A stretch of DNA of 64,000 nt from a virus (lineage: Duplodnaviria > Caudoviricetes). The DNA is taken from positions 10,166 to 74,165 of IMG/VR virus record IMGVR_UViG_3300020045_008916; one strand, given 5' to 3'. The position numbers and the translations under genes were made by a program. Of the stretch, positions 11,002-31,589 are shown piece after piece; position 1 is the stretch's first letter, and every line of letters starts with the position of its first letter. The notes beneath the pieces are model-generated. The model searched no databases, was not told the origin of the DNA, and saw only the letters and a program-made list of their open reading frames with translations.

Positions 11002-11008
11002 GCTTTTA

Positions 11009-11209
11009 CTATTTAATTGTTTTTACAAATGGTAGACCACCACCTGAATAAGTAGAAGGCAATACTCCGTTCCATTTATCAATAGCTGCTTGTTGTAAGA
11101 TTTCTGGTGTGATGCCTTTAGATTTGATAATATTCTCTTCAGCTTGTAACTCTGAAGCTATGTCCGTCCTTTGTTGTAAAAGAACTGAAAGCTCTAAAAG
11201 AGAATGCTT
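11009..11209 (-). pseudogene. Start-less C-terminal remnant of an SPFH/band-7 protein
   Basis: The frame reads ...AEENIIKSKGITPEILQQAAIDKWNGVLPSTYSGGGLPFVKTIK*, is preceded by in-frame TAA TAA, and has no ATG. Confidence 0.65.
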
Positions 11210-11232
11210 TTATTAAAGTTCCTCTCAACCAT

Positions 11233-11529
11233 TTAACTATTTCCATAATATTGCCTCCTTAGTTTGTCTTTTAATTCGTAAATGATAGTTGCTTCTGGAA
11301 ATTCTGCAAGCAGTTTCTCTCTTCCCACATTATCGTACAGGTGATGTATCCTAGGTTGAACCATCAGTATATTTTCTGGTAAAAGCCTAAAGCTTGGATA
11401 GGCTCCCTTGCCAAGGATGTGAGCAAAATTATTGACATTGAAGGGTATCCACTGTCCTGTAATTTCACAGCACTCGTTCCTCTGTTCGTAGATTTCTTTG
11501 AAGAGCTTTAACTCGCCAGTAGCTGTCAT
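11233..11529 (-). CDS. Small HNH-like nuclease
   Basis: CEITG, FAHILGKG, ENILMV, HHLYD. Confidence 0.5.
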   Translation of the reverse strand: MTATGELKLFKEIYEQRNECCEITGQWIPFNVNNFAHILGKGAYPSFRLLPENILMVQPRIHHLYDNVGREKLLAEFPEATIIYELKDKLRRQYYGNS

Positions 11530-12488: not shown

Positions 12489-12667
12489 TATGATAATTCT
12501 TTAATTTTTTCGTGAATAACTGCTCTCTGAAATAGGATGCTGCAAACACAATACAGGCAGGTATAGGTCAAGCAATGTGTGAAGGTATAGAACCAAATCC
12601 AGAGCGCGATAATTATGATAGTGAGAATGTTATTTAGGACTTTATAGGCTGTTAGCGTAGTCCTCAT
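12488..12667 (-). CDS. Small membrane protein (59 aa, below the ORF-track cutoff)
   Basis: MRTTLTAYKVLNNILTIIIIALWIWF...; its stop overlaps the ligase ATG (TAATG). Confidence 0.55.
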   Translation of the reverse strand: MRTTLTAYKVLNNILTIIIIALWIWFYTFTHCLTYTCLYCVCSILFQRAVIHEKIKELS

Positions 12668-13485
12668 AATATTTTAGGTTTTCTAAATAGTTTTCTGTTG
12701 TAAGTGTTGGAAGTTGGAAGGTTGGTGGTGGTAGTTCTGAAAAACCACAGCATTTTGCTGCACAGTTATAGCCTCCGAAATAACCTTTACGAAGATAATC
12801 CATAGCCACTTCAAAGCTGTCTATAAAATATTTTTCTTGCTCCTCAGAGAAGGTAAGGTTGAAAACATCCCCGCCCACAAGAAGCTCGGCTGCTGTCTTG
12901 ATACCTAATTTATCTTCTACCGTCCAAGCTTTTCCCCTAATCTCGCAGATAGTGTTAGTTGCAGCACATCCGAAGCAGATATTATCTCTAGTATCTCCAT
13001 AAGTGTCCATATCAATCTCAACGTGCTTAGCTTTTAAGCCATTAACCATAGCCATAACAATATCCTTACCTGACATGGCTTTTACTATTTCACTGAATTT
13101 CTTTTCCATTTCTTTCGATTTTTAAATTGTAAAACAATGTGTCCTCAGTGAAATGTACGCTCTCTTGCATATCCTCAATCACTGTTGGTATTCCCTTGCT
13201 ATTGTACTTGGCTTTCCCACCTTTAAGGGTTTCTTTGCTTGCTTCAGGGTCGATAGCCTCTTCGTCTTGTAGGTTTGTAATCTTTGTAACGTTAAACTCA
13301 CCTTCTGGCAAGATGATAGTATCACCTATGTTAACCTCAGTGTTTGAGAATAGGTTGATTGTGTTGGGAGTTGAAAGGAATTGGTGGTAGCTTGGGTATT
13401 CTTTATAGTTGTTAAGGTCGTGTTTCATTATAGGGGTTTTAGTTTTTAAAATTCTATGTCTTTCTGACATCAATACTTTCTTCAT
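12642..13485 (-). CDS. Two hypothetical early proteins (12642-13109, 13090-13485)
   Basis: Co-oriented overlapping ORFs from the track. Confidence 0.6.
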
Positions 13486-13497
13486 GGTTAAAAGCTT

Positions 13498-14109
13498 TTA
13501 CTTAACAAAATTAATAAGAAAGTCTAGCAATAGTTGTTTGTAATTTACAGCAGCACCTAAAACAGCAGCAGCAGCATCAGCAGCATAAGCAGCATAAGCA
13601 GCATAAGCAGCATAAGCAGCATAAGCAGCAGCAGCAGCAGCAGCATCAGCAGCATAAGCAGCATAAGCAGCATAAGCAGCAGCAGCAGCAGCAGCATCAG
13701 CAGCATAAGCAGCATAAGCAGCACCAAAAGCAGCAGCAGCATCAGCAGCATAAGCAGCATCAGCAGCAGCCCTTCTTTTTATCCTCAAAAACTCTAAGTC
13801 GACAGTACCATTCAAATAATCTTGTGTCGCTTGTATAGCCTCTCTTGGGGCTTTACTTGGATACTTTTTCTCGTAGATAGGTAATACAATCAATGCAACA
13901 CCAATGGCAAGTAATCTAAACTCTTTATCTTGTAATTGGCAATTGTTTCTTACAAACCAAAACTTATCCTTTAAGGAAATATCTAGATTTAAAATCTGTT
14001 GGATTGACATCTCTTGTGCCTCGCCAATGATAGTTTCAGATTTGCCAGCAGTTTCTTTATAGCAGCCACTACCCGCTAAAATTTCTTTTCTTGAAAATAA
14101 TGTTTTCAT
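13498..14109 (-). CDS. Imm5-like domain protein with Ala/Tyr/Asp low-complexity repeat
   Basis: VLPIYEKKYPSKAPREAIQATQDYLNG followed by an AADAAYAA-type tract. Confidence 0.55.
   Translation of the reverse strand: MKTLFSRKEILAGSGCYKETAGKSETIIGEAQEMSIQQILNLDISLKDKFWFVRNNCQLQDKEFRLLAIGVALIVLPIYEKKYPSKAPREAIQATQDYLNGTVDLEFLRIKRRAAADAAYAADAAAAFGAAYAAYAADAAAAAAAYAAYAAYAADAAAAAAAYAAYAAYAAYAAYAADAAAAVLGAAVNYKQLLLDFLINFVK
13563..13770 (-). repeat. GCA-based tandem repeat encoding (AAY/AAD)n
   Basis: Runs of gcagcataa, gcagcatca and gcagca. Confidence 0.95.
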
Positions 14110-14113
14110 AATT

Positions 14114-15547
14114 TTACTTATAATAAGTTAATAATTGTCCGATAGGTTCACAAATATAATAGTAGGTCTTGACAAAACTCCTGTACTTGGGATGGTATCT
14201 ATAAATAGCCGACTTTCTCCGTCTCTTAGGAGTTTCAACTTTCAATATACGCTCCCCCATTTTATGAGCTTTCTCAGCTACCTCGTGTAAATGTGTGAAG
14301 TACTGGTACTTGTTGCCGTAATAGCGTACCGTATAGGGCAAATCGAAAAGTTCTATGCTGTTCATTATGATAGTACGCTAGGATTGATATCTTTGATTGG
14401 TATCCCACCCTTGACAGTCTCTATGTCAATATTCCCGTTACGATAGATGGCTGTGATAAAGAACCACCTGCCCAAGTAAGGAGCCTCAAGTTCTGTCCGA
14501 AACTCGGGAGATATCTCTACCTTTATCCCAGAGAGCATCTTACTCAGGAGGTGTTTTAGTTCTTTGGTCTTCATATCCACTGTTCTTCTTTGGAATGTTT
14601 AATTACGTTATTTATAAACCGACTATTTTTGTGAGGATTTAAAGAAGTTGGATAGTGCTTCGCTAAAATCATTGTTTGATTATTTCTCATCAAGGCGAGT
14701 TTCCCTCGTATGCTAATTATCCTCTGAATATCCCCTTTTGCAGGTTTACTGTAATCTGGTTTATACATAGTTATAGGTTGGCAATAATTTGAAAAAGATT
14801 GTCGGTCGCTAGATTAAGCAGATGTTCTTTTATCTGTTCGTACTCTGCCTCAATTTTTCCAAGATTGAAACCATAATCTGCCACTAGAATTGCATAACAA
14901 GCAGCAGCATCTTTATGCGTATAGTCCTTGTCAAGGATAAGTTTCAAAAGTCTTGACTTTTCACGCAAATCTGCGGCTTCTACTGGTAAGTATAAGTCTA
15001 AAAACAGTTCTGGCTCTATATTGAAAAGATTGCCACCCGAAGTAAGGTCTATCAGACCGTTTGTATTGAACAGCACATTAATAATCTCAAAATCAGGTTG
15101 TTCGACTTCCAACAACTCTAGGCTTTCCAAATTTCCATAGGCAATGTGTTTTGCATAGGCATTCATTTGGGAATAAGTGCCAACTTTCTGGCCTGTTACG
15201 GGAACTCTGAGAGCTACCTTGTTCTGGACATCGTAGATGCTGTATTGATTTCTGATTATGCCAAAATAAAGGGCATCTTCTTTGGCCTGTATGTTCTGGC
15301 TGATATCCAGTGTGGCAGTTTTGCCATTCACCCACACACTGAAGTAGGTGTTATCTTTGATATGGTTTTTATATTCTGCAATATAATTTTCCAAACTTGG
15401 CAAAAAATTTGTGATATCCGACTGATGTGAATATGGTGATAGTGCTACCATAAATCCAGTTGTAGGGGTCTGTCCCTCTAGGTTAAAAGACAAACCTCCG
15501 TTTGCTAAGGCAAGTACTGCCATTCTGATAATGTTTTGCTTGTTCAT
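14114..15547 (-). CDS. Hypothetical early proteins (14114-14365, 14365-14580, 14571-14768, 14771-15547)
   Basis: Tightly packed co-oriented ORFs. Confidence 0.55.
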
Positions 15548-15558
15548 GTTGCTTTAGA

Positions 15559-16539
15559 TTAAAAATTAGGATTGATAAGTGATTGGCATTCTTGTTCGCT
15601 GACTTCTCTAAGAACCAAGAGTTTAGGAGTTCTTACCTTTCCATCACAATCCGCTGACACAATAATATCAGCAGCATCTACCTCACACTCTAAAATCACC
15701 ATATCTGACCAATTACGACCAAAATCTATAGCCCACTTCAAATGAGAGACATGAATGCCTTGAGAACAACTATTTTTAGAATTGTTATCTGTTTTCTTTT
15801 CTTGCTTAAGCTCTCCAATAACATACTTAAAACTCCTGTCATAGTCTGAACAGTAATTTTCACCCACCTTGTGAACAGCTTTGTAAAGAATTGCCTTATC
15901 ACCCACCATTTTAACTGGATAATTTTTTCGATAGACATCAAAATTGTTTTCAATGGTAGGTATTTCAATTAAAATAGAAGTGTCGTTCAATGATAGTTTT
16001 AAATTCTTAACATTATCAGAAAAAACACGAAGAGAGTTATAACCGAAACAAACCACAGTATTTGCGCCCTTCAGCAAATTGACCTGTGAGCTTCCCCACA
16101 TTTCTTTGACCTGTGAGCTTCCCCGCATTTCTTTGACCTGTGAGCTTTCCCGCATTACATTGACCTGTGAGCTTCCCCGCATTACATTGACCTGTGAGCT
16201 TTCCCGCATTTCTTTGACCTGTGAGCTTCCCCGCATTACATTGACCTGTGAGCTTCCCCGCATTACATTGACCTGTGAGCTTTCCCGCATTTCTTTGACC
16301 TGTGAGCTTCCCCACATTTCTTTGACCTGTGAGCTTTCCCACATTTCTTTGACCTGTGAGCTTTCCCGCATTACATTGACCTGTGAGCTTCCCCGCATTT
16401 GCAAGATGATAGTTGTACCTAGTACGCAGTCAATTTTTGCATTGACTAAAATATATACGCCACCCTCTAGTATTATTGGTGACGTGTTATTTTCAATTCT
16501 GAAAGGATTTAATAAAGTACCTTTGTTTATTCTTTCCAT
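15559..16539 (-). CDS. Nonapeptide-repeat (probable beta-solenoid) protein with conserved phage C-terminal domain
   Basis: 12 x M[R/W][G/E]SSQV[NV/KE/NL], then YCSDYD..FKY.IGE..CSQGIH..ECEV..DGKVR domain. Confidence 0.7.
   Translation of the reverse strand: MERINKGTLLNPFRIENNTSPIILEGGVYILVNAKIDCVLGTTIILQMRGSSQVNVMRESSQVKEMWESSQVKEMWGSSQVKEMRESSQVNVMRGSSQVNVMRGSSQVKEMRESSQVNVMRGSSQVNVMRESSQVKEMRGSSQVKEMWGSSQVNLLKGANTVVCFGYNSLRVFSDNVKNLKLSLNDTSILIEIPTIENNFDVYRKNYPVKMVGDKAILYKAVHKVGENYCSDYDRSFKYVIGELKQEKKTDNNSKNSCSQGIHVSHLKWAIDFGRNWSDMVILECEVDAADIIVSADCDGKVRTPKLLVLREVSEQECQSLINPNF
16075..16398 (-). repeat. 12 x 27-bp tandem repeat
   Basis: Invariant core gacctgtgagctt in every unit; 324 bp in total. 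Confidence 0.97.
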
Positions 16540-16584
16540 TGTTATTTTAGATATTTTTAAGTTTTAACCTGTTAATCTTATCTA

Positions 16585-19190
16585 CTATCTGTTCTCTTGA
16601 GAAAACATGCCACATTCACCTAAAAACCAGTCTATAATATCATATCTGGGGTCATAGGTCGTATCTTTAACAACTCTTCCGTCTACACTATTAATCCACA
16701 AATCTACATGCAAGCCATAAGGTAGGTGGTTATCCTTATTCTTCCAATAGAATGCAAAAGCATCCCACAAATCTTCTGTTCTAAAAATTGTTTCTGTACC
16801 CTGTGCGGAAGATAATAATACTTGATACTCTGCCGTATCTCCTTCCAAAAATTCCAGTTGTTCCATGATTTTTAAATTTCGTCTATAAATATATCGTTGA
16901 TGTGTTTTAACATACCAACACCGTTTTTAATTTTTTGTTTTACTTTTCTCTTAGCCTCTGTTTTGTTTTTGGCTTTTATCGTCATTACAATCGAGTAAAA
17001 ATCGACATCTACTGTGTAACTTTTCATGGCTCAAGCTCTATTACCCGTACAATGTCCTTGCCAAACCCTAACTCCTTAGCAGTTGCCTCGTCCGCAGTAA
17101 ATTTATCGTGACCATACTCCTCTTTAAATTTAAATAAGACTCCATTTACAGTAGTATGTTTTGAACCTGTTCTTACATCACAGCCTGAAAGGACTCTCTT
17201 ACAAGCCTTACTAACTGCACAATTTCCGTTGCTAATGTAGGAAGTATCTTTAAAGTCGCTTGCAATAAGCACTAATACTTTTGGATTTTTCATGATAAGA
17301 ATAATGAAGTTATATCGGTTTTGTTAATTGGATTTTTGAATATTGTTTGGAAACGTGATTGATGATAGTCGTTAACCTCGTAAAGGTACACACGAAACCC
17401 CAATTTTTCAACAGCTTCTTTGACCTCTTCATTGGTAAAAGCTATTTTAAAACGCTCTATGGTGTTAAAAGCAAACTTATAAGGGTCACAAGCGGCTGCT
17501 CCCAAAGAAGCTACTAATTCCCAATCTGCATGTAGGGGTGGGAACATATTACAATTCGAATGTCTGCCCCTAATAGTCGCTTGCATAGAATGCTGAAATA
17601 TTCTACTGTAGCCGTCATCTCCACGAGAATGCCAAAGGCCTTTACAATCAGAAGGGTGTTCAATCCTGAAAACTTGAATTACACGTTTCATAAGCTTTTA
17701 CTATTAAGGTGCTGTTAACTCTTCGAAAGTGAATAAACCAAGTTCAGTAATACCTCTACTAATCTTAAACTTACCCTTGATAGCTATCCCATCATGGATT
17801 GTTTGAAGTGCTTGCCACTGGTCAATCGTTAGTTTTCCAACTGCTTCAGGTCTGAGAATACCTGCGTTTTCTCGTAAAATATAGTCAGCAGATTTGTCTC
17901 TCAAATACGGGCTAGTGTTTATTTCCTTGGCATTTAAAAGGTTTTTACCAAGGACACACTGTCTACCATCTTTGGTGTCATATCTACAAGAACCACCCTC
18001 ATATCCACATGTTGAAGGGTCTTTATAGTAAGGTCTGATTTGCTCTAAAGCAAACTCTTTTGCTGTTTGATTTTCCATTACGCTCTTTTTGTTAAGATGA
18101 TAGTTCTGATTACATTTTCTCCGTAGCCCGAGTGATAAGCCTTGTCTTTATCATCTCCAAACTCTGTCTCTCCGTAGTAGTCAAAAGCATAGTACACCCT
18201 CTCTGTCTGTGCAAGGTCAGGGTATAGGAATACACTGTCCGTACCTGTATTCGGAAATTGTTGTCCCTCTTGTCTTTTGAGAGCTTTTGATATCGCACAG
18301 TTACCATTGTCTGTGTATCTTGTGTTTACAAAGTCAATGCCTTTTAATTCTAATGTGATTGTGTTTTTCATATCTAAATGTATAAATAAATTTCTTGTTC
18401 CTCTTTGTTTTGTACCCAAGCAAAAGCACGTCCGCTAACCTCAATCCCAAATCCACCGATTGTCCATTTCTCATCCGCATCAATACATACTTTCAAGTTA
18501 CAGACAAAGTATCCCGCCCAACTACCAGATGAGGTGTAAGCAAGTCCCAAACAATTTAAAAGGTTATTCCAAGCACTTCGCCCTGTAAACTTAGGCAAGG
18601 CGCACCGTTTGGGCAGTCTTGCAACGTGGGTGTTATTTTTGAAATAAGTTACGATAGCTTTTTCTAGGTAGTTGAAATCGCTTTCTGAAAATGTTGTTAG
18701 TGCGTTCATATTAAATTCTCCCCGATGATAGTACATTAATGGTAAAAGCTCTTTGGTTTTCTACAAACTCCCCTGTCTTTTGATGAGAAGCCGCCTGTGC
18801 TATAACCTCAATCAAAATCAACTCTCTTTCTAAGTGCCAGTCCTCAGGCAGTTCCGCACACTGTGCAAACGCTACACGTGCCTCGCTCATGTACTCAAAA
18901 TCTTCGTTTAATTCTAAGTGCTTAGCATCGTGCCAAGCTCTGAATAGTATGTTTATATAGGGGTCTCCGAAAATTGTATTATCGCAATGGTCTCCCGATA
19001 TAGGCATGTATCCGTGTTTTTTGGTGGCTTTTTTGAACTCTTCAAAGGACATTTCTTCTCCACACTCTACAGTGAATTTTAAATTATTTGTTCTGTTGAC
19101 AATCCAGTCGTTCAACCTTTGACTGAATGGTGTACTAGCTTTTAACCTTAATAGCTGTTCGATTGAGTACCCGTTTTTGTTGTTTTCCAT
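16585..19190 (-). CDS. Cluster of hypothetical early proteins (16585-16866, 17024-17293, 17290-17691, 17704-18078, 18078-18419, 18374-18736, 18711-19190)
   Basis: Co-oriented abutting ORFs; 17024 and 18078 are paralogues. Confidence 0.6.
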
Positions 19191-19204
19191 TTCGTGATTT
19201 GTTT

Positions 19205-19253
19205 TAGTACTCTGTGTTTTACAGGCTTGTAACCGTCTTTGGCCACATTGCTA
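19205..19253 (-). ncRNA. Twister ribozyme, P1 type
   Basis: UAGC^AA UGU GGC CAAAG ACGG UUACAAGC CUGU AAAAC ACA GAGU ACUA: P2 UGU/ACA, P4 ACGG/CUGU, L4 UUACAAGC, GAGU; P1 is short (3 bp plus C-A). Confidence 0.8.
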
Positions 19254-19287
19254 GGTGCTTTTCAGGTTAAGCACCAAACCGTCTACT

Positions 19288-19431
19288 CTAGTAGCTTGAT
19301 AGGTTGAAAATAGTTCCGTTGATATGTGCCACAACCAACATAGAGATGATAGTTGCCAAGAACAGGATGCCGCCAACGATAGCGCACTTCTCGTTTATAG
19401 GCTTTGACCTAAAATAGTGGATAGCTTTCAT
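19288..19431 (-). CDS. Small membrane peptide (47 aa)
   Basis: MKAIHYFRSKPINEKCAIVGGILFLATIISMLVVAHINGTIFNLSSY. Confidence 0.55.
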   Translation of the reverse strand: MKAIHYFRSKPINEKCAIVGGILFLATIISMLVVAHINGTIFNLSSY

Positions 19432-19432
19432 T

Positions 19433-20872
19433 TTAATCTTTGGTTAGGTCTACTTCAACAAGTTCTTTTATTTCCAACGTAATATGGTTAGCATATAGTT
19501 TTCTTTGACCACGCTCCCACAAATCTAAAGCGGTAGCTCTCGGCTGCTCGTTATGTTCATCCACCAAACACGATGTTTGAATGTTACCGTCTTCAACCTC
19601 ACAGTTAGCAAAGTCCAAATTAAATCCAACGTGTTGAAAGTATTTGCCTATTGCATCTTTCCAGTTTTCAGCCTCTACAATTTCATCTAGCGTATAGGCG
19701 TTAACACTTTCTAATTGTTCGCCCTCTAAATAGATGTCTTCATAAACATCGTGCATGGAAGTTATATAAAATCTTTTCATGTTGTTAGTTTTTATGTTTA
19801 GCAAATATTTCAATTATCTTAACATCTCTTCCACTCTTAGCGTAGTGGTTACGTCCATCATTAAATTGTACTACATTTTTATTGTAAAATCTCACACGGC
19901 TTCTGTTGACTAACAAATCCTTAACCAGTGGGTTTTCAAAAATGGAAACTTGTACAGCTTCTTTTCTTTTAGCCCTTAATTTTTTCTTAGTACGAATTTC
20001 ATCTATGTTAATAGTTAGCCTTAATTTTGCTATTTCTGATTTAATTTCACGGCTTAATTTAAACCGCATATCTAGTTTTGGCAGTCGCCCACATAAGACA
20101 AACGCTGTCGATGTTACGGCTTTTATTGCAATTAGCTTTGCTTTCTTATTCATGTTACAAAAGTTTAGGGTTTTTAATTGAGGGGATAAAATCGTTTTCC
20201 ATCCATTCGACGAACAACAACCAGCGTTTAGCTTGGCGTGTTTTATATCTTCTTAGCGTGTTGGTTTTCATATTTATAGGAATTTATGTTTAACTCTCTT
20301 TTTTGCTTCGCTGTAAAACTCCCCATCTTCATCTTCCAAGTCCATCAATACTATTTGCAATCCCTCCCGAGTGCCTCCATTATCAGCCCATTCTAATTGG
20401 TTAGGAGAATAGTCTTTGAAATACTCGTCTTCAACATCACCAACACCTACAGTTAAAAAGCTTAACAACGCTATAGAACTTTCTAAGCTATCCCACGAAT
20501 GAAAAATAGAGGGTTTATAATCAGCCCCTTTAAAAAGCAACTTACCATCTACGTACATTTTATAAGCTACTTTATCACCACAATAGTAAGTGGTTAGGCT
20601 AATACCTAAATCTTTGATTTTAGTAGAGGCTAGTTTTTGCGTAAAATAGTTAGTTTTCATAGCTTTATGGTTTCTAAATCTCCTCTTAAAATCCTACCTA
20701 GATAGGCGGTTTTGCCCTCATCAACTAAAAATAATAATCTACCTATCTGCTTTAAGTCTTTTTTGAAACGTCCGTTTAACAAGCCTTCAAATACGCTTGG
20801 TGCAAGAATGCTTTTATGAGTTTCTACTAAAGCAAGTAATTGCTCGTTTGTTGTTAAGATATACTGTTTCAT
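19433..20872 (-). CDS. Hypothetical early proteins (19433-19813, 19785-20153, 20155-20271, 20274-20660, 20657-20872)
   Basis: Abutting co-oriented ORFs lying between the type III hammerhead and the twister. Confidence 0.6.
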
Positions 20873-20921
20873 TGTTTCGTTATTTTTAACTCATCAGGCT
20901 AGACACACATCTAGCGACAAT
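20871..20921 (-). ncRNA. Hammerhead ribozyme, type III
   Basis: AUUGU C^ GCUAGA(UGUGUG)UCUAGC CUGAUGA GUUA(AAAA)UAAC GAAAC AAU: perfect core and three perfectly paired stems. Confidence 0.93.
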
Positions 20922-21373
20922 TTATTTACCCAAACTCGTTGCCTAGTCTTTGGGGGCTCGCAATACCTGTACACTTTTATCGGTGTTATGGCTCAAATAG
21001 TCCTGTTTATGTGACTAATGCGGATTTGTTTTTGTTTCGGGTTGGAGTATCTCTTAATTCCCTACATTACGTTTTAAAGTTGCTATGTAATATTTAACCT
21101 AATCGCTTTGCGACATTTCACAACGTCCTACTAACTTTCGGGATAAAACCCATATTCAATTGGTAACAACTAATTTGTTTGACTTGACATTTAATAAGCC
21201 ATTGAGTTTATTCTCAATCCACCATTTAGAGGACGTGGAAAACCTGCATCTTTTAAGTCCCTGCAAGACTTTTTAGAAAATGTAACAGTCGTCTATATAG
21301 ACCTCTCTTTTGTATAGACTTATCCTTATTTCATGATTTAGCCACTGTTACATTCTTGTTGGTTACTTTCAAC
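20922..21373 (-). ncRNA. Candidate structured non-coding RNA (about 450 nt)
   Basis: No ATG-initiated ORF longer than 17 aa; 11-bp stem (21344-54/21279-89), many hairpins with GNRA loops, 7-bp long-range pairing (21230-36/21123-29); has its own promoter. Confidence 0.6.
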
Positions 21374-21377
21374 ACTT

Positions 21378-21409
21378 CAAAGGTAAGTATAAGATTTGGT
21401 ATTTGCAAG
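21378..21409 (-). promoter_or_regulatory. Bacteroidota sigma-A-type early promoter
   Basis: CTTG ... TACCTTTG, with the two terminal Gs 28 bp apart. Confidence 0.75.
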
Positions 21410-21584
21410 GGTTATTTTAAAATACTTGTATCATTGCTTTATTTGTGTGCTAGCTTGTAATTTGATAAGTGCTAACCTACTTTAAAGTTTTAGGTTCAAA
21501 GCCTCTTAATCATACTGCAAGCGTAACTTACTAATTGGCGTGTATTGAACACTAATATATTTTAAACTCTATACAAAGAACTAT

Positions 21585-21649
21585 CTTTTGCTTAACTCAT
21601 CAGAATAGGCTCAAAAGCTACCTATTGACGGCTGTTAGACCGTTTCGTT
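21585..21649 (-). ncRNA. Hammerhead ribozyme, type II, with loop I/3'-tail pseudoknot
   Basis: AAC GAAAC GG(UCUAACAG)CCGU C^ AAUAGG(UAGCUUUUGAG)CCUAUU CUGAUGA GUU AAG CAAAAG; CUUUUG pairs with CAAAAG. Confidence 0.88.
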
Positions 21650-21652
21650 TTT

Positions 21653-21862
21653 TTACTTGTTTGCTTTGTGCATTTCTCTTTCGTGTGTTAAAACATCAGC
21701 ACACCACCTTACTTTATTCATTAAGGCAGTAGAGTTACCAAAACCATATTCAAAACTATTACAACCCAAATATATGTCACCTATTACATTTTTTAATTCT
21801 GCTGATAATTTAGCGGCTTTTGCAAACTTTGCATCTAATTGTTTTACTGTAAGTGTTTTCAT
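21653..21862 (-). CDS. Hypothetical early protein (first gene after the promoter at 21917)
   Basis: ORF track; its initiation region is identical to that at 23343-23368. Confidence 0.65.
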   Translation of the reverse strand: MKTLTVKQLDAKFAKAAKLSAELKNVIGDIYLGCNSFEYGFGNSTALMNKVRWCADVLTHEREMHKANK

Positions 21863-21916
21863 AATGCTAATATTTTTAGTTTTAAGGTGATTTCCTGCTT
21901 GTCACTTCCGACATAA

Positions 21917-21955
21917 CAAAGGTGTGAATAATATTTGATATACACAATAGCAAGA
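21917..21955 (-). promoter_or_regulatory. Early promoter (CACCTTTG variant)
   Basis: CACCTTTG at 21924-21917 with CTTG/TTTG upstream. Confidence 0.55.
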
Positions 21956-22702
21956 CAAAAATAAATACAATAAAGTTTAATATAATTTGTAAAGTGCTGA
22001 TAATGAGAGAGATTAATTTTATATAAGATTTAAGATAAAGCGGGATAGCTATAAGGTAGTAGGATATTTTGAGCTAAAAGTTGTTAGCTAACCATATCAC
22101 AGGATTTAAAGGATAAGAGCTAATTAGCTACTACCTATAGGTGAATAACAAAGAGTGACACAATGACACGTATAAGATGACACGATATGATAGTTTGTCA
22201 TGCTATAATAAATTGACAGCTAACAGAATATACCGAGCGGTATAATTAGTGGATGCTAAAATTGTTAGCAAAGGATGGATGTTATCAGCTAACCTACTAA
22301 TTTAAGAGATAAGTAATATATACTATAAGATAGATAACAAGACATAGGAGATATAAGGGTAAACAGGGGAGAGAGCAAGAGAGCGTGTAACGTGTTGCGG
22401 GATATCGTGCGGATTAGGTTGTTATTGTGCCTCAGATAAGCTGAAAGGGTGATTATAGACTAGATGGATAAGTGAGGGAATATTAAAAGCACAATAGTAT
22501 TATACCCTCATCTCACAAACATCTATCTAAATCTCTTTCAAAATACCCTCAAATCAATACTTAGTGTATCAAAGTGCCTCTAATTAGCCTCAAATATCCC
22601 AATTAACAAAGTGCCTTTAAAGCATCGTGAATAAACTATTCCTCTAGGGCAGAGACTTGAATATCAATCACCCCCTTAGTGTATTTAGAACCGATTGGAC
22701 GT

Positions 22703-22735
22703 AAAAAAGCCCTTAACAATTGCTTGCAAGGGCTT
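22703..22735 (-). terminator. Intrinsic terminator of the small-peptide operon
   Basis: AAGCCCTT/AAGGGCTT stem followed by a T-tract on minus. Confidence 0.8.
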
Positions 22736-22758
22736 CAACCATTAATAGCTGTCAATAT

Positions 22759-23350
22759 TCAGCTCATCTGCTTTATCCAATATGCCATCAGCACACACAA
22801 GATAAAGAAAGCTAACATAGCTAAATCAAATTGCTTTGGGTTTCTCGGGTTGCTAGCGTAGTTCATTTCAATAGGGTTATGTAAGCGATTGAATAAACAG
22901 CTAACAAAGCGACAGCTAAGCAGATTAGCACGGGTTTTAAACGTGACAAAGTGGCAGACAAGCCTCTGTACTTGTAGGTTGTGGCTAGAACTTCAAGGGT
23001 AAGTTTTAAATCTTTCATTGTGATTATGTTTAAGGTTAAAGGGGTTTAGTAGCCCCCAAGAAATGTGATTTGAATATCTCCATTAGGTAGTTCGATAGCT
23101 TGGAATGTTACCCCGCTTTCGATGATGCCACTAAGCATCTCGCAAAATGTCTCGTTAGTTACTGTTAGTTGTTTCATAACTATTTGCTGTTAGGTGAGAA
23201 GATAAAGAACACACTTGCAACGATAACGGCTAACAGCCCTGCAACGTAGTAGTTTGCAGGATTAACCGAGCTAACAGCAAATAAAGAGATGAGGCAAGCG
23301 AAAGCTAATGCTAAGAATGCGATTGAGATGATTTGGTGAGTAGTTTTCAT
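22759..23350 (-). CDS. Operon of four small peptides: 23180-23350 (TM), 23046-23177 (43 aa), 22863-23018 (51 aa, TM), 22759-22866 (35 aa, TM)
   Basis: Translated by hand; abutting or ATGA-overlapping; lies between the promoter at 23398 and the terminator at 22703. Confidence 0.65.
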
Positions 23351-23397
23351 AATGCTAATATTTTTAGTAAAAGCCGTAGCGTCATTGCTTGGCACTT

Positions 23398-23429
23398 CAA
23401 AGGTGCAAAATAGTATTGACATATGCAAG
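23398..23429 (-). promoter_or_regulatory. Early promoter
   Basis: CTTGCA ... CACCTTTGAAGTG; same 28-bp spacing and same ACCTTTGAAGTG tail as the promoter at 21378. Confidence 0.7.
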
Positions 23430-23653
23430 TGGCTAGTTGATATAGTGCAGATATTTCACGCTGTTAGTGTCACAATTACGTTACAAAAGAAATCAGCTAG
23501 CAATTTGCCCCATCACAGAGTGAAGCGGAGATATAGCCCAAAGGTATGAGCAACAAGCGATTTAGATAGCGAAGTGGTACAAGGGTACGTTTGCCACATC
23601 CGAAACGTTTGAGGGTAGCACCTTGAGATGAAAGAATTGTTTTGGGATTGAAA

Positions 23654-23715
23654 GAGGGGGGAGGGGTGAAGGAGATTAAAAACCCGAGAGAGGGGGGTGA
23701 TGAAGATGGGATGGG
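23654..23715 (+). other. G-tract cluster (G-quadruplex-capable); candidate genome end or packaging region
   Basis: GGGGGGAGGGG, GGGGGG, GGG, GGG; 29 G vs 3 C in 23641-23700. Confidence 0.4.
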
Positions 23716-23956
23716 ATAGACCCATGAAATCATAGATATAATCCTGAAATCATATTCACGTTATTTCCCCCTAAAATTTTTAAATTTTCTGGCCTAAATT
23801 TTTCGAACTCCTTAGACGTACCCTTAAAAATCCTTTTAAAGATACCCAGCTGAGTAAGCCATCCAGAATAGAAAGATAATTGAAAATGTGATACTACCCT
23901 ACACGAATTTTGGATAAAGAAGCTCTCACCATAGAAGTGGAAATTGTTTATAACGC

Positions 23957-23983
23957 AAAAATCCCCGACTGTTAGGCCGAGGA
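23957..23983 (-). terminator. Intrinsic terminator ending the 24-28 kb minus operon
   Basis: TCCTCG...CGGGGA stem followed by TTTTT. Confidence 0.7.
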
Positions 23984-24392
23984 CTCTTTTAAATTGTTAT
24001 TTCTTTTATAGTTTTTAACTTGTCTGGTTTCTGACTTAAAATCCAATACTCTGCTAAGGCTGCTGTTTCAAAGACTAATACCTCAGACCAGCTGTCAAAC
24101 ATATCGGAATACTCCTGATACTGTCTCCACCAAAATCCCATTACCTTCCTATAAACATGATATTCAACATTTTTTGTAGATACTGGTGGTGTTACCTGTA
24201 CAATTTTAAATTTCATAATTACTTTACTAATACTGCGTAATATCCACTAAACGTAGGTAGATTGCCTCCACCCTCACGTGTTACCTCTAAGCCTAACTCC
24301 CTTAATTTTTCAACTATTTGGTAGAGCTCATGTCTTTTGTTTTCGGCCACTAGGATTTTGACCTCTATTTGATTTTCCATTTTTTGGTGTAA

Positions 24393-24875
24393 TTAATAAT
24401 TTGAGTGTAAATAGTCTAAGAAATAATCTGCTGCGGTATTCTCGTAGTTACTCTCTTTGGTTAATTCTTTTAATCTCTTTTGAAAGTCAAAACAAATATC
24501 ATCACAACCTAAGGTTTCAGGCACATCCCAAACAATAGCTACAAAACGAGAGCCTATTCTATTATGCTGGTACAGTCCGTGAAGCTTATTTCCATCAAAC
24601 CTGATAATATCTCCTGATTGAATAACCATCTCACAGAACTCATGGTTAAAAGATAAACCTCCGTCTGCAACCAGTACGAGCATTACAGTATCCTTGCCTT
24701 TAACAGTACCATCGGTATGTAAGGGTACGTAGCCATCAGATAAAACCAAATCTTCTCCTATTCGCATAATATTGATACTTTCAAGATTAGATAATTTTAC
24801 GTTCCTGTAATACTCTTTCAGCTTTTTTGGGATAACTATATCACGAAATCGCCATTGGTAAACTTTCTTACTCAT
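24393..24875 (-). CDS. 2OG-Fe(II) oxygenase/cupin-like protein
   Basis: VPLHTDG ... GDIIRFDGNKLHG: HxD...H triad pattern in a beta-rich fold. Confidence 0.6.
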   Translation of the reverse strand: MSKKVYQWRFRDIVIPKKLKEYYRNVKLSNLESINIMRIGEDLVLSDGYVPLHTDGTVKGKDTVMLVLVADGGLSFNHEFCEMVIQSGDIIRFDGNKLHGLYQHNRIGSRFVAIVWDVPETLGCDDICFDFQKRLKELTKESNYENTAADYFLDYLHSNY

Positions 24876-24876
24876 T

Positions 24877-25074
24877 CTACTTAGAGTTTAGCTCAATTCT
24901 GTTTGCCAAAATGTCACTATATTCCGACATAACAACTTCTTGGTTAAAGAGGAGTTCTCTGTTTTGCGGTGATAAGTTTTTAAAAGCAGGAGTCTCTAAA
25001 AATTCAGTCAGCTTAGACAGTTTTGTATCCAGCTCTTTTTGCTCCTCTTGCAATCTTTCTAAAAATGTACTCAT
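24877..25074 (-). CDS. crAss001_48-related small coiled-coil protein
   Basis: FLERLQEEQKELDTKLSKLTEFL...LL.NQ..VMSEY..IL..RI pattern. Confidence 0.65.
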   Translation of the reverse strand: MSTFLERLQEEQKELDTKLSKLTEFLETPAFKNLSPQNRELLFNQEVVMSEYSDILANRIELNSK

Positions 25075-25654
25075 ATTTTATTGGTTAAGAGCCTATAAGA
25101 AAGCTCAAAGGTTAAAAAATAAACTGTTATAAAAATTAGGAAGTTAGCTGCTAACATCAGCCCAATCGATAAACCAACTATCGGGAAAGCAGTAAAAGGT
25201 AGTAGGCACGTACAGAAAATCATCAAGGCCTTGAACAAGTGCCAGCCATCCATGAACATCACAAAGACTGTACTGCTGCCCCAAAACTTCTCTCCCTGAG
25301 ATTTGTCCCCATTTTTCCACTTATTTACCCAAGCGGTATCTTTTCGCCAGAACATCTGGTTCCAAGTCTTTATACGGCTCCCTAAAAAGAAAGGCTCAAT
25401 CATTGTATCCATGCCAGCGGATAAAAGAGCTATTACCATAATTAATAGGATAGCTGTCATAGTGCGGTCATTCCTTTAATAAACACTTTCAAATCCTCAA
25501 GACTGTAAATCTGTGCAATAAACATTCTTCCAAAATCGTGGTACTCAAATCTGATTGTTCCTTCTACGTCTACAGTAATCTCATCTGTAATATTGTAGTA
25601 GCCATTTTCGTAAGTTGGGAGACCTAACTCCTCAAGCATTCCTTCTGTTATCAT
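25071..25654 (-). CDS. Membrane protein (25071-25460) and small hypothetical protein (25457-25654)
   Basis: Hydrophobic segments and NKWKNGD..GEKFWGSST..DGWHLFK. Confidence 0.55.
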
Positions 25655-26109
25655 AATTGTATGGGTTGGTAATACTCGTAATTCATCGGTAAAATCCCAC
25701 TACTCTCTAGCATAGCTTCACAAGCTGACCAGTTAACATAGTGTCTCTGAGTTTTAGGGTCAAATAATAAGGGACATCCCAAAGCAGCATCATCGATGTA
25801 AAGCTGAGCAAAGCACTTAGGACTAGTTGTCCAGTTGCACTGTGTAGGGTTACATTGAACTCCGTACAATGGAATACCATTTTCTTTGAACCAGTTTTCT
25901 GCCTCTGTTAAGAAAGCTCCTATCCTGTCTTCAATCAAATCATCCCCTGTAGCCTTGTGGGTATCCCTATCGGAGCGCATTGTATAAAGAATTAGCTGAT
26001 GACCTGCATCAACCAATCTTCTGAGAACTCTTGCTGCTCCAATATCCTCTCCTATATGGGGAAAGTTGTGTGTGGTACACGTACCATCAAAGTCGACAGC
26101 TATTACCAT
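25651..26109 (-). CDS. HAD-superfamily phosphatase (BT0820-like)
   Basis: N-terminal IAVDFDGT, LILYTMR, SPK, YIDD. Confidence 0.85.
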   Translation of the reverse strand: MVIAVDFDGTCTTHNFPHIGEDIGAARVLRRLVDAGHQLILYTMRSDRDTHKATGDDLIEDRIGAFLTEAENWFKENGIPLYGVQCNPTQCNWTTSPKCFAQLYIDDAALGCPLLFDPKTQRHYVNWSACEAMLESSGILPMNYEYYQPIQL

Positions 26110-29100
26110 TAGAATAAAGAATTAGTTCTTTCTACAATAATGTCCAGTTGGATTTCCAAATCTTTAGCTAAATCAATACTGCCTTCTAGCCGTTCTACAA
26201 AACTCTTTTCAGAGAAAGGTCTTTCTGGTGCAAGAGGCATAGGTGATGGATTTTTGTTTGGATTGTCATGTGTTTTTATTCTGTTTATAAAATAGGTCAC
26301 ATTATTAACGCGAGCCTCGATACGTTCTAATACTCGATTAAGTTTTTCGGATAGCTCATCTAACTCAGGACGCTGATTTGCTGTTTTTACGCAAGGTGCT
26401 CCACTATACACTACGTTGCAAGTATCGCTCATCCTATTTGTTTTTAGATTTCTTAGCAGCTACTTTATTGGTAGAGGCCGCAGGAGTTTGTACTGGTTCT
26501 TCTTTTTCGACTACTACAGGCTCAGCGTCAGCTGCTGGCGAGCTTATCTCTTCTGTTGTGGCCGTTACACCACTCTCTGCAATTTCTTCGCTTGTATCGC
26601 CTGCCTCAGGGTCAAATTCTTGTGGATGTAAATCTTCATCGCCTGCAAGGTTGTCATCTTCTGCTGCATCGAAAGTAATTACTTCGCCAACTTCTACACC
26701 CTCTTCAACCAATTCTGGATTTGAGTCCAAAGTTTCTTGAGTCACAATGTGCTCTACAGGGCTTTCACCTAAAATATCATTTAATACAGACTGTTGAGGC
26801 TCTTCAACCTGTCCTAGGTCGCATTGATGTTTTGCAACGTCCCAAGAGAACATCACTTCTCCACAATTATCACATTTTGTCATATCTTTGTTTTTATAAT
26901 TCGTCAAATTCTTTTTGTAGTTTTTCAATATAAGCTTCATCTATGGCACACAGGTCTTGGATGAACTTTTCTATTAAAGGCTTAATTTCCTTTCTCACAT
27001 CTTTTAAAGAGATTGTCGTGGTTTTTAACACTTCACCAGAGCTTTCAAGATGGATGAATTTAGTAGCATGAATAGCTCGCAAACCAAATTTCGTCTGCCT
27101 TATCCGCTGTAGCAGATTACTTCCTTTTTCAAGGCGTTCTAATTCTTGCTCTGTCATTACTTGCTCAATCTACTGTGAAATCTCCACTTAGCTAATTTTG
27201 TTACAGGAATATCAATTCCCATTCCAGCTCCGTTTCCAATGTTTGTCACAACATCTACAGGCATTAGTCTTGCCATCTTGTCAGGAAGAGGATTTATGAT
27301 AACAGCTCTTACTCTTTTATTATTAATGCGTTTTTTGATAATATCGCCTTTCAAAAGAAGCCTTCCATCTTTATCGGTAGTATTCCATTCTATCTGAGAC
27401 TCTGCGGTCTGCACATAAGGGTCAACACCTGCGGAGTAGTAGGGTATTGAAGGGTTTTCTGCCGTACTCGGACGATGATGATAAACAACTACACCATTTC
27501 CCCGCAGTTTCTTTCCCAATTTGGCGTTAACCTCTATAGCCGCCTGTTGTTCGTATTCCAATATTTTTGCTTTGCCTTCAAAAAGACTAACAATCGTCAG
27601 CCAGATAAGTTTTAAAAATTTCATATAAGTTTTGTGTTTGTTAATTTTTCGTAAATCTCTTCCATCGACTCTTTGACCTGAATATATCTTCCTGTTTTTA
27701 AATAGATAATGGTTGATTGAAAGCTTCTTTCATTTCCACACGCTTCCATGTAATCTATGTTATCTTTAAATAGGGTTACCTTAGATGCTTCTTCATCAAA
27801 TTCTCGAACTGCTGTAAAAACCGCCCCTAACATTCTTCAAACAAATTATCAGGTTCCACATTGTTTAACCAAACCTCTGCATCTAATGCCGCATTTACAG
27901 TGTTAAGGTCATAACCACCTTCTTCATAATCCGCAGATGTTGATACGCCTCGCAAGACTGCTACTTTAGCGTCAGCCATATCCCAGACATTGCGTCCCCA
28001 GAAGTCTTTCTCTGGTGTAGTCTGTCTTTCTTCCAAGATGCCTTGGACTTGATAATCGATTTCTTCCTGTGTTCTCATTTTCTGTTGTTTAATGTAAGGC
28101 AAATATATACAAACATTTTGACTCTCACAAATTTATTTTAAACTTTTTGTTTGGAGCATAGATAGTCATATTACCATTTTACTGTTGCTAGGCCTAGGCC
28201 TACGTTAGTTATTGAATAGCCTAAAGATGTAAATTCCAAAAGAAAAATATCAAGCCCTTTGTATGGTACATTGATAACCACATCTCTAAAGCCAGACTGA
28301 CAAGCCTTCTCAATTAGAGTAAAAGCTTTTTCTACTTGAACATCAATACTCGCTTGAAAATTTTCAGCAATTTCCCTTGCCGCAGTTGCGGGTAATCTTT
28401 TTGGTTTATCACACATACAGTAGTTTAAAAAATGTCCACATAATATACACGTATTCGTAGCTAGAAATTTTTCTAAATAAACAACTGCTTCGCTATTCAT
28501 CTTGTCTGGGTTTTTCTGGTACAACTAAAACATGTGTAGAGCAAGCAAAAGGCCAGTCTTCATTGAAATATTTAGTTTCTCCATTGTCAAATAGCACCAT
28601 AAGATTTTCAGTCTTAACACCACCTTTTAAGAGTTCTAAGCCTTCTTGACTATTTACATCAATCCACTCAGACTTAAATTGTTTAGCGTAGGCATGAGCT
28701 ACGATTTCTAAAAGCTGCTCCATACTGGTAGTGTCAAACTGCCGCATGAAAGATACTTCGTTGTAGATTTCGAATACAGATTTCATAACGAAGCCCTCCT
28801 ATCTACAACTCTCCCAGAACCGTTTCTGATAATGTCCACAAGACTTTTGTATGACACTGATATCCTATTCTTGCGATATTTATCTAAAGCTTCTGCATCC
28901 ATTCTACGCTCTTTAAGCTGTTGTTTGGATATTGGATTTGTTTGGTGTCTTTTCATATAACTTTCAACTTAGCTACATTTCTTGGTGTAGCATAAAAATG
29001 TAAATTTGGTGCCGTATTGGGATTATCAAGATATGCTAAGCTATCCTTTAAATACTCTTTTTCAGGCAAGAGTACAAACCCAAACCTATGCTGAGGTGTA

Positions 29101-31576: not shown

Positions 31577-31589
31577 ACTTTCTTTTTAG

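Follow-up and report, generated by a model that had tools for sequence, protein, structure and literature searches.

The early minus-strand RNA of this phage is probably split by co-transcriptional ribozyme cuts into separate messages with fixed ends. We give this reading, which reaches from the sequence motifs to cleavage and its consequences, a probability of about 0.65. The window (the whole stretch of DNA that was analyzed, 64,000 nt) comes from a phage of about 74 kb whose host is probably a member of the Bacteroidota, as predicted by its promoters and by its lack of Shine-Dalgarno sequences. Within 2.45 kb of it lie a type II hammerhead, a type III hammerhead and a twister, all sense to the minus-strand genes and each at a gene boundary. 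A preliminary description had claimed these motifs, and we could read all three directly in the sequence with the same positions and cut sites, while their placement and orientation follow from the ORF list. It had further stated that no intrinsic terminator separates the ribozymes, and a terminator scan reported none on the minus strand between them. Because the motifs are real, gene-sense and placed at gene boundaries, the natural reading is indeed that the transcript is cut into units without protein, although this reading is not novel, as the model was published in 2011 (PMC3088659). The features of the locus, all on the minus strand, are listed below in the order of transcription.

21917..21947 (-): promoter-like site of the Bacteroidota type (TTG N20 CACCTTTG), repeat family D1, ahead of ORF69
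21653..21862 (-): ORF69, a small gene from the ORF list, upstream of the type II hammerhead
21585..21649 (-): type II hammerhead ribozyme, predicted cut 21627/21626, complete core read in the sequence
21378..21408 (-): second promoter-like site, same family as 21917..21947, inside the 711-nt stretch between the hammerhead cuts
20917..21370 (-): ORF-free leader (no ORF >52 aa), upstream of the six-gene block
20871..20921 (-): minimal type III hammerhead, predicted cut 20916/20915, from Rfam RF00008 and a complete core
19288..20872 (-): six tightly packed small ORFs (71, 128, 38, 122, 115 and 47 aa), from the type III hammerhead to the twister
19254..19275 (-): perfect 7-bp hairpin (GGUGCUU/AAGCACC), from the sequence and kept in the minimum free energy (MFE) fold
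19204..19254 (-): type-P1 twister without P3, predicted cut 19250/19249, from Rfam RF03160 and the conserved nucleotides
18711..19190 (-): ORF159, a match to phrog_7806, first gene after the twister and the anchor for finding relatives

The promoter motif is enriched in the phage, with 17 occurrences observed against 6.0 ± 2.7 in shuffles, and is located before minus-strand ATGs. The site at 21378..21408 matches the phage's other early promoter-like sites, being 70% identical over 37 nt to the one at 23393-23429. It is likely a promoter and would give rise to an ORF-free leader of ~455 nt with its end at the type III cut. Transcription starts are predicted near 21910 and 21370. The cuts had been described as bounding a 711-nt non-coding unit and a 1666-nt unit of about six ORFs. 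Both lengths are arithmetically right and the longer unit does correspond to the six ORFs. The 711-nt stretch, in contrast, is less convincing as a single non-coding unit: the promoter-like site (21408..21378) falls within it, neither of its parts folds better than shuffled sequences (z −0.94 for the leader at 20917..21370 and −0.16 for the other part), and the ORF-free leaders have neither homologues nor internal repeats in our searches, in which the sole match was that of the hammerhead itself to locus L063. The leader at 20917..21370 also belongs to no Rfam family. Protein comparisons of the surrounding genes gave no PHROG or Pfam match for ORF69 and, for the six-ORF block, no family match above the curated cut-offs of the same two collections. 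A blastn search of 50,697 phage records with the region as query returned no match.

Structure of the three ribozyme motifs

The type II hammerhead begins 3 nt past the TAA stop of ORF69 (21862..21653). Its core, recovered from the sequence and by a descriptor, comprises CUGAUGA at 21603-21597 and GAAA at 21646-21643 (C21647-GAAA). The cleavage triplet GUC ends at 21627 (C17 = 21627), and G21596 and C21647 form the G10.1-C11.1 pair. Stem I has 6 bp (21626-21621/21609-21604) and stem III, running from A21643 to U21628, has 4–5 bp with the A15.1-U16.1 pair present; both are closed by loops and are returned by the MFE fold. Stem II is an open 3-bp helix (GUU 21596-21594 with AAC 21649-21647), which gives the type II topology. 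Type II hammerheads make their tertiary contact through a pseudoknot in which at least 4 bp link loop I to the sequence just after stem II (PMC3088659). Here it has 6 bp, pairing CUUUUG of loop I (21617-21612) with CAAAAG of the 3'-tail (21590-21585), and starts 3 nt past stem II. The layout of short stem II and pseudoknot is shared with six other loci (L029, L031, L039, L063, L073 and L077). Rfam hammerhead models gave no match at this site, even at E ≤ 10. By comparison, a covariance model that we call R1, for which 29 viral type II hammerheads other than that of the window were used, scored the site at 55.5 bits (E 2.6e-12), its top match. Since the training set of R1 was picked by a core pattern that the window sequence also carries, pattern-only controls are the fair comparison, and these scored 13–24 bits.

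The type III hammerhead was aligned over its full length by Rfam RF00008 (36.5 bits, E 4.4e-6), below the gathering score of 48.5. The deficit is due to short stems and loops and not to the core: stem I is a 6-bp helix with loop UGUGUG, stem II a 4-bp helix with loop AAAA, and stem III is open with 5 bp. Stem III includes two start-codon nucleotides of the 71-aa ORF, A20872 and U20871 (AUG at 20872). Two other contigs, L003 and L004, carry hammerheads whose core and stem II are identical to those of the window. Stem I covaries among these three sequences, reading GUAAAG/CUUUAC and AGAUAG/CUAUCU in L003 and L004 and GCUAGA/UCUAGC in the window, and stem III of L003 and L004 pairs as AUUG/CAAU and ACUG/CAGU, which is compensatory relative to the window. 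In all three, the ribozyme follows a long non-coding leader and precedes the first of several small genes. Unlike in the window, the start codon of L003 and L004 lies ~25–50 nt past the ribozyme.

The twister is situated in the gap between the stop (19288) and the next ATG (19190), which is that of ORF159; its end is 14 nt before this ATG. Rfam RF03160 scored it at 34.2 bits (E 7.8e-5), below the gathering score of 67.2; the low score reflects the absence of the P3 stem of the model, in place of which there is a mini C-AAA-G. All conserved nucleotides are present between 19249 and 19210, including the AA after the scissile bond, the GC(C) after P2, the L4 element G-GU-NN-CAAGCC, and the AAA and GAG. 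The hallmark of twisters is a double pseudoknot consisting of T1 (L4 with L1) and T2 (L4 with L2), whereas P3 is optional, occurring in ~78% of twisters, and P1 is dispensable for cleavage (PMC6154101). Both pseudoknots can be drawn in the window: T1 is formed by U19231-A19208, A19230-U19209 and C19229-G19210 (UAC/GUA), and T2 by G19243 C19242 with G19226 C19225. The T1 of the window fits a covariation rule that is near exceptionless among 112 viral twister-pattern matches, 12 of which have the UA/UA combination, and the P3-less layout of the window is the commonest form, found identically in 47 of 103 viral twisters. One departure is the nucleotide at N-1, which is C19250 in the window and not U. 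Of the same 103 viral twisters, 98 have U here, 4 have C and 1 has A, and a U 5' of the scissile phosphate is a frequent but not strictly defining twister feature. The motif has further weak points in a G-U pair within its 3-bp P4 and in its 3-bp P1, and the MFE fold prefers a competing nested hairpin over the twister. The adjoining 7-bp hairpin is kept in the MFE fold of 19201-19281 (z −3.14); on the predicted upstream product of twister cleavage, it would be separated from the 3' end by 4 nt. The GUUU ahead of this hairpin can pair with AAAC past the twister. We infer that the hairpin may serve as a 3'-end protector.

All three motifs thus score below Rfam gathering thresholds, at which the scan of the whole window returned nothing but a tRNA, and a permissive Rfam scan of 4 kb found neither hammerhead. 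The cmsearch that had been suggested as a check gives sub-gathering matches at the type III hammerhead and the twister and no match at the type II hammerhead. When our descriptors were run on 400 simulated genomes, the total matches were 2 for the twister, 2 for type II and 1 for type III. A chance origin of the three motifs is negligible. We consider them genuine-looking and core-complete, with self-cleavage predicted for each. It is quite unlikely that one or more of them, with the twister the likeliest case, only looks like a ribozyme and is inactive, so that the RNA has fewer cut sites than proposed. The Rfam scores, the C at N-1 of the twister, its short P1 and P4 with the G-U pair, and the competing hairpin would all fit such a case, and inactive hammerhead-like RNAs are on record (PMC3088659). 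Those recorded hammerheads, however, deviate at core positions, whereas every conserved core nucleotide is in place in all three motifs of the window; in twisters, P3, the stem that is missing here, is optional, and cleavage can do without P1 (PMC6154101), and the C at N-1 has its counterparts among natural viral twisters (4/103).

Elsewhere in the window, a hammerhead-like site near 44484(+) was rejected since it has no G10.1-C11.1 pair and a weak stem III. R1 also gave a weak match at 30166-30223(-), with 18 bits and E 0.12.

Relatives of the ORF159 junction and a census of arrays

Synteny in related genomes had been proposed as a further check. At the orthologous ORF159 junctions of L224 and L226, where the 5'-UTR and the N-terminus of the protein are conserved, a type I (RAGATH-1-like) hammerhead is found in place of the twister of the window. 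Homologues of ORF159 in L225, L227 and L228/L306, on the other hand, have a junction without a ribozyme, so a ribozyme is not required for ORF159 expression. The occurrence of two unrelated ribozyme classes at one orthologous junction suggests repeated selection for a cut there. This modest comparative evidence points to cleavage itself, and not one particular fold, as the function that may be under selection. L310 was dropped as a candidate ribozyme-free orthologous junction because its ATCACGAAATTATG motif precedes a different ORF, and a motif similar to ATCACGAAATTATG in L236 lies inside coding sequence.

Among the loci with ORF159 homologues, only L226/L305 share further genes with the window by tblastn. 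A tblastn search of 21 local ORFs against all the ribozyme-bearing loci collected gave no matches, and the six ORFs of the block have no homologues in any of these loci. Searches of IMG/VR for relatives, one with only ORF159 as query and one with only the RNA ligase of the phage, found none. In the 334 distinct viral and metagenome loci collected, at least two same-strand ribozymes within 5 kb are present in 49 and at least three in 18, and hammerhead and twister are mixed on one strand in 7. Arrays of more than one class are frequent in other viral contigs.

Predicted messages and rival readings

Cleavage by hammerheads and twisters leaves a 2',3'-cyclic phosphate and a 5'-OH, ends that are the substrate of RtcB. 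In the reading that we prefer, each ribozyme would cut itself during transcription, with the cyclic phosphate on the upstream piece and the 5'-hydroxyl on the downstream one. The type II hammerhead would clip the ORF69 message 26 nt past its stop codon, substituting for a terminator and leaving its stem III hairpin at the 3' end of that message. The type III hammerhead would remove the long ORF-free leader from the six-gene block, and its 5-bp stem III may dissociate after the cut and free the paired start codon. Finally, the twister would part the six-gene block, giving it a new 3' end with the 7-bp hairpin, from a long downstream operon that begins at ORF159. With message ends fixed in this way, neighboring genes could differ in stability and translation, which would resemble the action of engineered ribozyme insulators.

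The start codon paired in stem III invites a different reading of the type III hammerhead as a regulated switch, in which the leader or a bound factor sets the rate of cleavage, cleavage unmasks the start codon, and translation of the six genes is gated accordingly. Besides the pairing of two start-codon nucleotides (A and U, AUG at 20872), this would fit the setting common to all three members of the sub-family, between a long non-coding leader and the first of several small genes, and, in L004, a sequence directly downstream of the hammerhead that is perfectly complementary to the ribozyme core. Such an anti-core complement was sought downstream of the type III hammerhead in the window and in L003 and is absent from both, being significant in L004 only. 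Start-codon pairing is likewise absent from the L003 and L004 hammerheads, whose start codons lie well beyond the ribozyme, so sequestration is not conserved, and the leader of the window has neither excess structure (z −0.94) nor homologues. We regard a switch as improbable. An unlikely but more general objection is that the ribozymes are near-neutral passengers, easily gained and lost, which travel with accessory cassettes and whose position at boundaries reflects tolerance of insertion. Their patchiness at ORF159 junctions (a type I hammerhead in two, the twister in the window, nothing in several) agrees with this, as does the finding that the flanking genes are ORFans with none common to the ribozyme-bearing loci; the genes beside clustered hammerheads are also not constant in earlier work (PMC3088659). 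On the other hand, all three ribozymes are gene-sense, and intact cores with covarying stems indicate purifying selection for cleavage competence. The two unrelated classes at the ORF159 junction, which suggest repeated selection for cutting, argue in the same direction.

The ends that RtcB joins raise the question of whether the pieces are rejoined. The preliminary description had suggested circular RNA through RtcB-type ligation. In such a reading, the 711-nt or the 1666-nt piece would be circularized by a host RtcB-type ligase, or by the phage ligase after end healing, and the product would be a circle of non-coding RNA or of polycistronic mRNA. The phage does encode an Rnl2-like RNA ligase, its only ligase, on the same strand (11526-12488(-)). 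Rnl2-type ligases require 3'-OH and 5'-phosphate ends, and this enzyme would thus not join a 2',3'-cyclic phosphate to a 5'-OH; no RtcB, AAA_33 kinase or PNK3P phosphatase was found in the phage. At its two ends (GCUAG... and ...CUAGC), the 1666-nt piece has 5 nt of complementarity, which makes this six-gene piece a candidate for circularization, yet its 5'-terminal GCUAG is already inside the 6-bp stem I of the type III hammerhead. As for the 711-nt piece, it is interrupted by the promoter-like site at 21378..21408, and it is bracketed by hammerheads of types II and III and not by the same-type ends expected of a ribozyme-bounded circle. Because the flanking topologies differ, a circle would not rebuild a ribozyme. 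Circular and spliced products of clustered phage hammerheads were sought in the 2011 study and none were detected (PMC3088659), and circularization here appears extremely improbable. There is a scarcely greater probability that the cuts do more than part messages, in that either the ~455-nt promoter-driven, ORF-free RNA, with a 3' end set by the type III hammerhead, acts as a functional early RNA in its own right, or one of the ribozyme-bounded pieces is rejoined or circularized by a host RtcB.

Why phages and bacteria carry many self-cleaving ribozymes is not answered by this locus. It does provide a test case, with three architectures in 2.5 kb that each occupy a different position: after a stop codon, across the start codon where a long leader ends, and between two gene blocks. 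Given an identified host, the locus would suit tests of natural ribozymes as insulators of mRNA stability and translation, notably in Bacteroidota, in which translation initiation does not rely on Shine-Dalgarno pairing.

Comparison with known systems

The locus is a clean further example of a known phage ribozyme layout and not a new system. It had been put forward as a candidate for an undescribed one, a claim that we set aside because clustered phage arrays have been known since 2011 (PMC3088659) and the clustering of classes has been reviewed (PMC6765202). In prophages, arrays of three hammerheads have been shown to cleave both in vitro and in vivo (PMC3088659). The cutting of long phage transcripts into gene-length mRNAs can be regarded as the standard model, itself a proposal of Perreault et al., who also raised the idea of spliced or circular RNA (Perreault et al., 2011; PMC3088659). 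Like those prophage arrays, the window has several same-strand ribozymes within a few kb at gene boundaries, small genes that vary between phages, and a type II hammerhead with a pseudoknot between loop I and the 3'-tail. Unlike them, it mixes two hammerhead topologies with a twister, it belongs to an uncultured phage with Bacteroidota-type promoters, and one of its ribozymes would strip a long promoter-proximal leader rather than part two genes.

In bacteria and phages, ribozymes of one class are found clustered with those of others, and their co-location near phage genes was used to discover the twister-sister, pistol, hatchet and RAGATH motifs (reviewed in PMC6765202). The window conforms to this pattern in having different classes close together near phage genes. 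It goes beyond the pattern in the explicit replacement of one class by another at an orthologous junction, with a twister in the window and a type I hammerhead in L224 and L226.

A non-coding stretch of ~600–1000 nt between two hammerheads, with ends suited to RtcB, is also a feature of retrozymes and viroid-like RNAs (PMC5680766, PMC7761336). Such elements carry one ribozyme in duplicate, yield a circle with a complete copy, and replicate through RNA. The window differs in having hammerheads of types II and III, with a promoter-like site between them, in the operon of a DNA phage.

A further parallel is found in RiboJ and related synthetic insulators, RiboJ being a hammerhead-based insulator that raises the expression of the downstream gene (PMC6206723). 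RiboJ is engineered, derives from a plant satellite RNA and was tested in E. coli, whereas the predicted ribozymes of the window are natural, and two of them would also create 3' ends. In both cases, a hammerhead in the leader cuts off variable upstream RNA to give a fixed 5'-OH end with a compact fold, or would do so in the window. By analogy with RiboJ, the type III hammerhead and the twister would make expression of the genes that follow them independent of upstream context.

Three ribozyme motifs on the minus strand

Three ribozyme motifs lie on the minus strand of the window, in the sense orientation of the neighboring genes, as the preliminary description had claimed; the C17 of the type II hammerhead is again placed at 21627. 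The predicted cuts (21627/21626, 20916/20915 and 19250/19249) would separate pieces of 711 and 1666 nt.

Elements of the ribozyme region, in order of transcription
21947..21917 (-): promoter-like site, first in transcription order
21862..21653 (-): ORF69, a small gene after this promoter-like site
21585-21649 (-): type II hammerhead, 3 nt past the ORF69 stop, then about 215 nt
21408..21378 (-): promoter-like site, then about 455 nt without an ORF
20871-20921 (-): type III hammerhead, running into the ATG at 20872, followed by six ORFs
between the six-ORF block and the twister (-): 7-bp hairpin
19204-19254 (-): type-P1 twister, 14 nt before ORF159
downstream of the twister (-): long operon from ORF159 (18711..19190) to the Rnl2-like RNA ligase at 11526-12488

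Structure-aware descriptors returned exactly these three sites from the real genome; 400 same-size simulated genomes gave, in total, two twisters, two type II hammerheads, one type III and one type I. Three ribozymes on one strand within 2.45 kb are not a product of chance, and the original observation is correct, well above chance. Other ribozyme classes were sought in 11000-19300 and 21600-31000, and none was found. A hammerhead-like arrangement at about 44405-44520 (+), consisting of GAAA, a hairpin, UA, a 7-bp hairpin and CUGAUGA in an intergenic stretch before the late genes, is probably a look-alike, having no G10.1-C11.1 pair and a weak stem III.

In the Rfam check proposed in the preliminary description, no motif reached its gathering score. 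The type III hammerhead aligned over its full length to RF00008 at 20869-20923 (-) with 36.5 bits (E 4.4e-6) but under the GA of 48.5, and the twister matched RF03160 at 34.2 bits (GA 67.2), a low score because the model's P3 is deleted. A search of an 831-nt stretch gave no match at the type II hammerhead, even at E<=10. This motif reads AAC-GAAA-[ACGGU CUAACAG CCGU]-C^-[AAUAGG UAGCUUUUGAG CCUAUU]-CUGAUGA-GUU-AAG-CAAAAG on the minus strand; all core nucleotides are canonical, stem II is just 3 bp long, and a 6-bp pseudoknot pairs CUUUUG with CAAAAG. A pattern scan of IMG/VR for type II hammerheads gave 105 loci, about 30–40 of them obviously real, and the real viral examples likewise have a GUU(C)/(G)AAC stem II, with the tail pairing with loop I in many. 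When 29 of these were used to build a covariance model, with the window left out, the window site scored 55.5 bits (E 2.6e-12), top of all matches; loci fitting only the sequence pattern scored 13–24 bits.

Two other viral contigs carry the identical 24-nt core of the type III hammerhead together with stem II. Their stem I reads GUAAAG/CUUUAC or AGAUAG/CUAUCU, versus GCUAGA/UCUAGC in the window, and their stem III AUUG/CAAU or ACUG/CAGU; the differences are compensatory and leave the core constant. In all three copies a long non-coding leader precedes the ribozyme and the first gene of a small-gene run follows it, and only in the window is the AUG paired in stem III. One of the two contigs, L004, carries at 3266-3320 (-), directly after its hammerhead, a 19-20-nt stretch almost perfectly complementary to the ribozyme core (CUGAUGAGUUAAAAA...) that no shuffle matched; neither the window nor the other contig, L003, has it. 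An alternative hairpin formed with this complement could block the ribozyme, or it could cap the 5' end left by cleavage.

Twisters can lack P3 and can cleave without P1, and their T1 and T2 contacts link L4 with loops L1 and L2 (PMC6154101). We scanned IMG/VR with the presumed T1 positions left free. Across 112 distinct matches, the pair of L4 nucleotides left free and the pair following GAG were reverse complements with almost no exception (CA/UG 50, UC/GA 13, UA/UA 12, GA/UC 11, CC/GG 8, others); the window has UA/UA. Its 5-nt C-NNN-G insert replacing P3 is found in 47 of 103 viral twisters, among which a P1 of 3–5 bp is typical and the nucleotide preceding the cut is U in 98, C (as in the window) in 4 and A in 1. 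P4 of the window's twister contains a G-U pair. A nested MFE fold favors a competing hairpin; such programs cannot model the twister's double pseudoknot.

Transcription units and genomic setting

The motifs and their positions are shown by the sequence; from there, the mechanism we favor, as an inference, is that the ribozymes would self-cleave co-transcriptionally and so leave adjacent genes on distinct messages whose ends are fixed and structured. A minus-strand terminator scan found none between the ribozymes, in agreement with the preliminary description; two were recognized by eye further upstream, near 22735..22700 and 23985..23950. The proposed 711-nt non-coding unit fared less well. 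About 455 nt of it is indeed ORF-free, but given the internal promoter-like site and the upstream layout, the full unit would arise only from read-through, and a leader of about 455 nt would be the commoner RNA species. Compared with shuffles, neither part of the stretch shows more stable folding (z -0.94 and -0.16), and sequence searches found no homologues of either.

The IMG/VR record is 74,165 bp long (estimated completeness 96%), the window being its positions 10166-74165. The ribozyme region, presumably early, is a tightly packed run of small minus-strand ORFs nearly devoid of family matches. The pattern TTG, 19-21 nt, [T/C]AnnTTTG, a promoter-like site of the Bacteroidota type, occurs 17 times versus 6.0 ± 2.7 in shuffles; on the minus strand these enriched sites directly precede ATG codons at 39378, 28100, 23398 and 21917. 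Shine-Dalgarno sequences are absent at start codons. A 26-nt exact direct repeat (21855-21880 and 23343-23368) spans the leader and ATG of ORF69 and of a 56-aa membrane-like ORF. Because a similar promoter-like site lies upstream of each copy, it looks like a duplicated promoter-leader-start module. Two more ORF-free stretches of 500–850 nt, at 21863-22700 and 23430-23950, lie upstream of early promoters, the latter containing a minus-strand tract rich in pyrimidines at about 23640-23720. GC skew changes sign over 22000-24000, and these stretches could be an origin or regulatory region.

Elsewhere, residues about 480–790 of the 1091-aa DNA polymerase ORF (35199-38474, -) match HNH endonuclease and intein-like PHROGs, which suggests an intein or homing-endonuclease insertion. 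A sub-threshold isrG match (44.9 bits, GA 100) at 13512-13778 (-), within a 203-aa ORF (phrog_18326), is probably conserved coding sequence rather than an sRNA. A tRNA-Val (GAC) gene adjoins a YpsA/SLOG-family protein gene (31076-31662, -), and an ERF-family recombinase (9662-10390, +) lies on the opposite strand to it.

Ligation and the ORF159 junction

Ligation of the cleaved ends by an RtcB-type enzyme, as previously suggested, finds no counterpart in the phage's gene content: RtcB, an AAA_33-type kinase and a PNK3P phosphatase were sought in the phage genome and none was found. The phage's own RNA ligase, at the far end of the ribozyme operon, matches phrog_548 (1e-60), Pfam RNA_ligase (1e-10) and, weakly, T4_Rnl2_C, with no recognizable polynucleotide kinase or phosphatase partner in the genome. 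Rnl2-type ligases seal 3'-OH/5'-phosphate nicks, not ribozyme ends. The 5' end of the 1666-nt piece (GCUAG, 20915-20911) and its 3' end (CUAGC, 19254-19250), both on the minus strand, are complementary over 5 nt, probably by chance, since the 5' pentamer belongs to hammerhead stem I.

We gathered 123 loci with an alignment of homologues of ORF159 (phrog_7806), the first gene past the twister. Beyond ORF159, the only locus with genes in common with the window is L226 (=L305, a 78-kb contig); it also has a tRNA, at 2912-2986, some 2 kb upstream of the hammerheads that it carries. In L226 and a second locus, L224, the start of the gene is clearly orthologous, with conservation of both the 5'-UTR, (C/U)UAAAC..AUCACGA(A/U)nAUG, and the ORF159 N-terminus, ..NGY..RLK..PFSQRLN. 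At the position of the window's twister, L224 and L226 each have a type I hammerhead directly upstream of the gene, with a second about 300 nt further upstream; Rfam assigns the L226 site to RAGATH-1-hammerhead at 30 bits, under threshold. Homologues L225, L227 and L228/L306 have no ribozyme at this junction, which thus holds either of two unrelated classes or none, by lineage. The use of two unrelated classes favors selection for a cut rather than a particular fold, and the lineages without a ribozyme show that the cut is dispensable.

Ribozyme arrays in other loci

The type II model, run over 100 twister-bearing loci, gave 12 matches in 11 loci. In a census of 334 distinct loci, 49 had at least two same-strand ribozymes in 5 kb, 18 at least three and 7 a hammerhead with a twister; these loci were picked by ribozyme-like pattern or ORF159 homologue, which means that the fractions do not represent population frequencies. 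Examples include five type II hammerheads in 1.4 kb (L007, 5508-6960), types III, I, II, I and II in 2.3 kb (L034, 716-3040; L062, 4728-7030), two twisters with two type II hammerheads (L134) and three twisters each in L183 and L204.

The array had been put forward as a candidate undescribed system. However, arrays occur in those 49 of 334 loci, and both clustered ribozymes and the message-processing model were described for prophages with multiple hammerheads around single genes or short gene blocks (Perreault et al., 2011; PMC3088659). Triple arrays there cleaved in vitro and in vivo, processing into gene-length mRNAs was proposed, and spliced or circular products were raised but undetectable in that study. 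A 2019 review likewise places bacterial ribozymes near one another and near phage genes, with their role unresolved (PMC6765202). The window's array is therefore a further example of known phage ribozyme clusters, and its proposed cutting would correspond, in nature, to what engineered ribozyme insulators do (PMC6206723).
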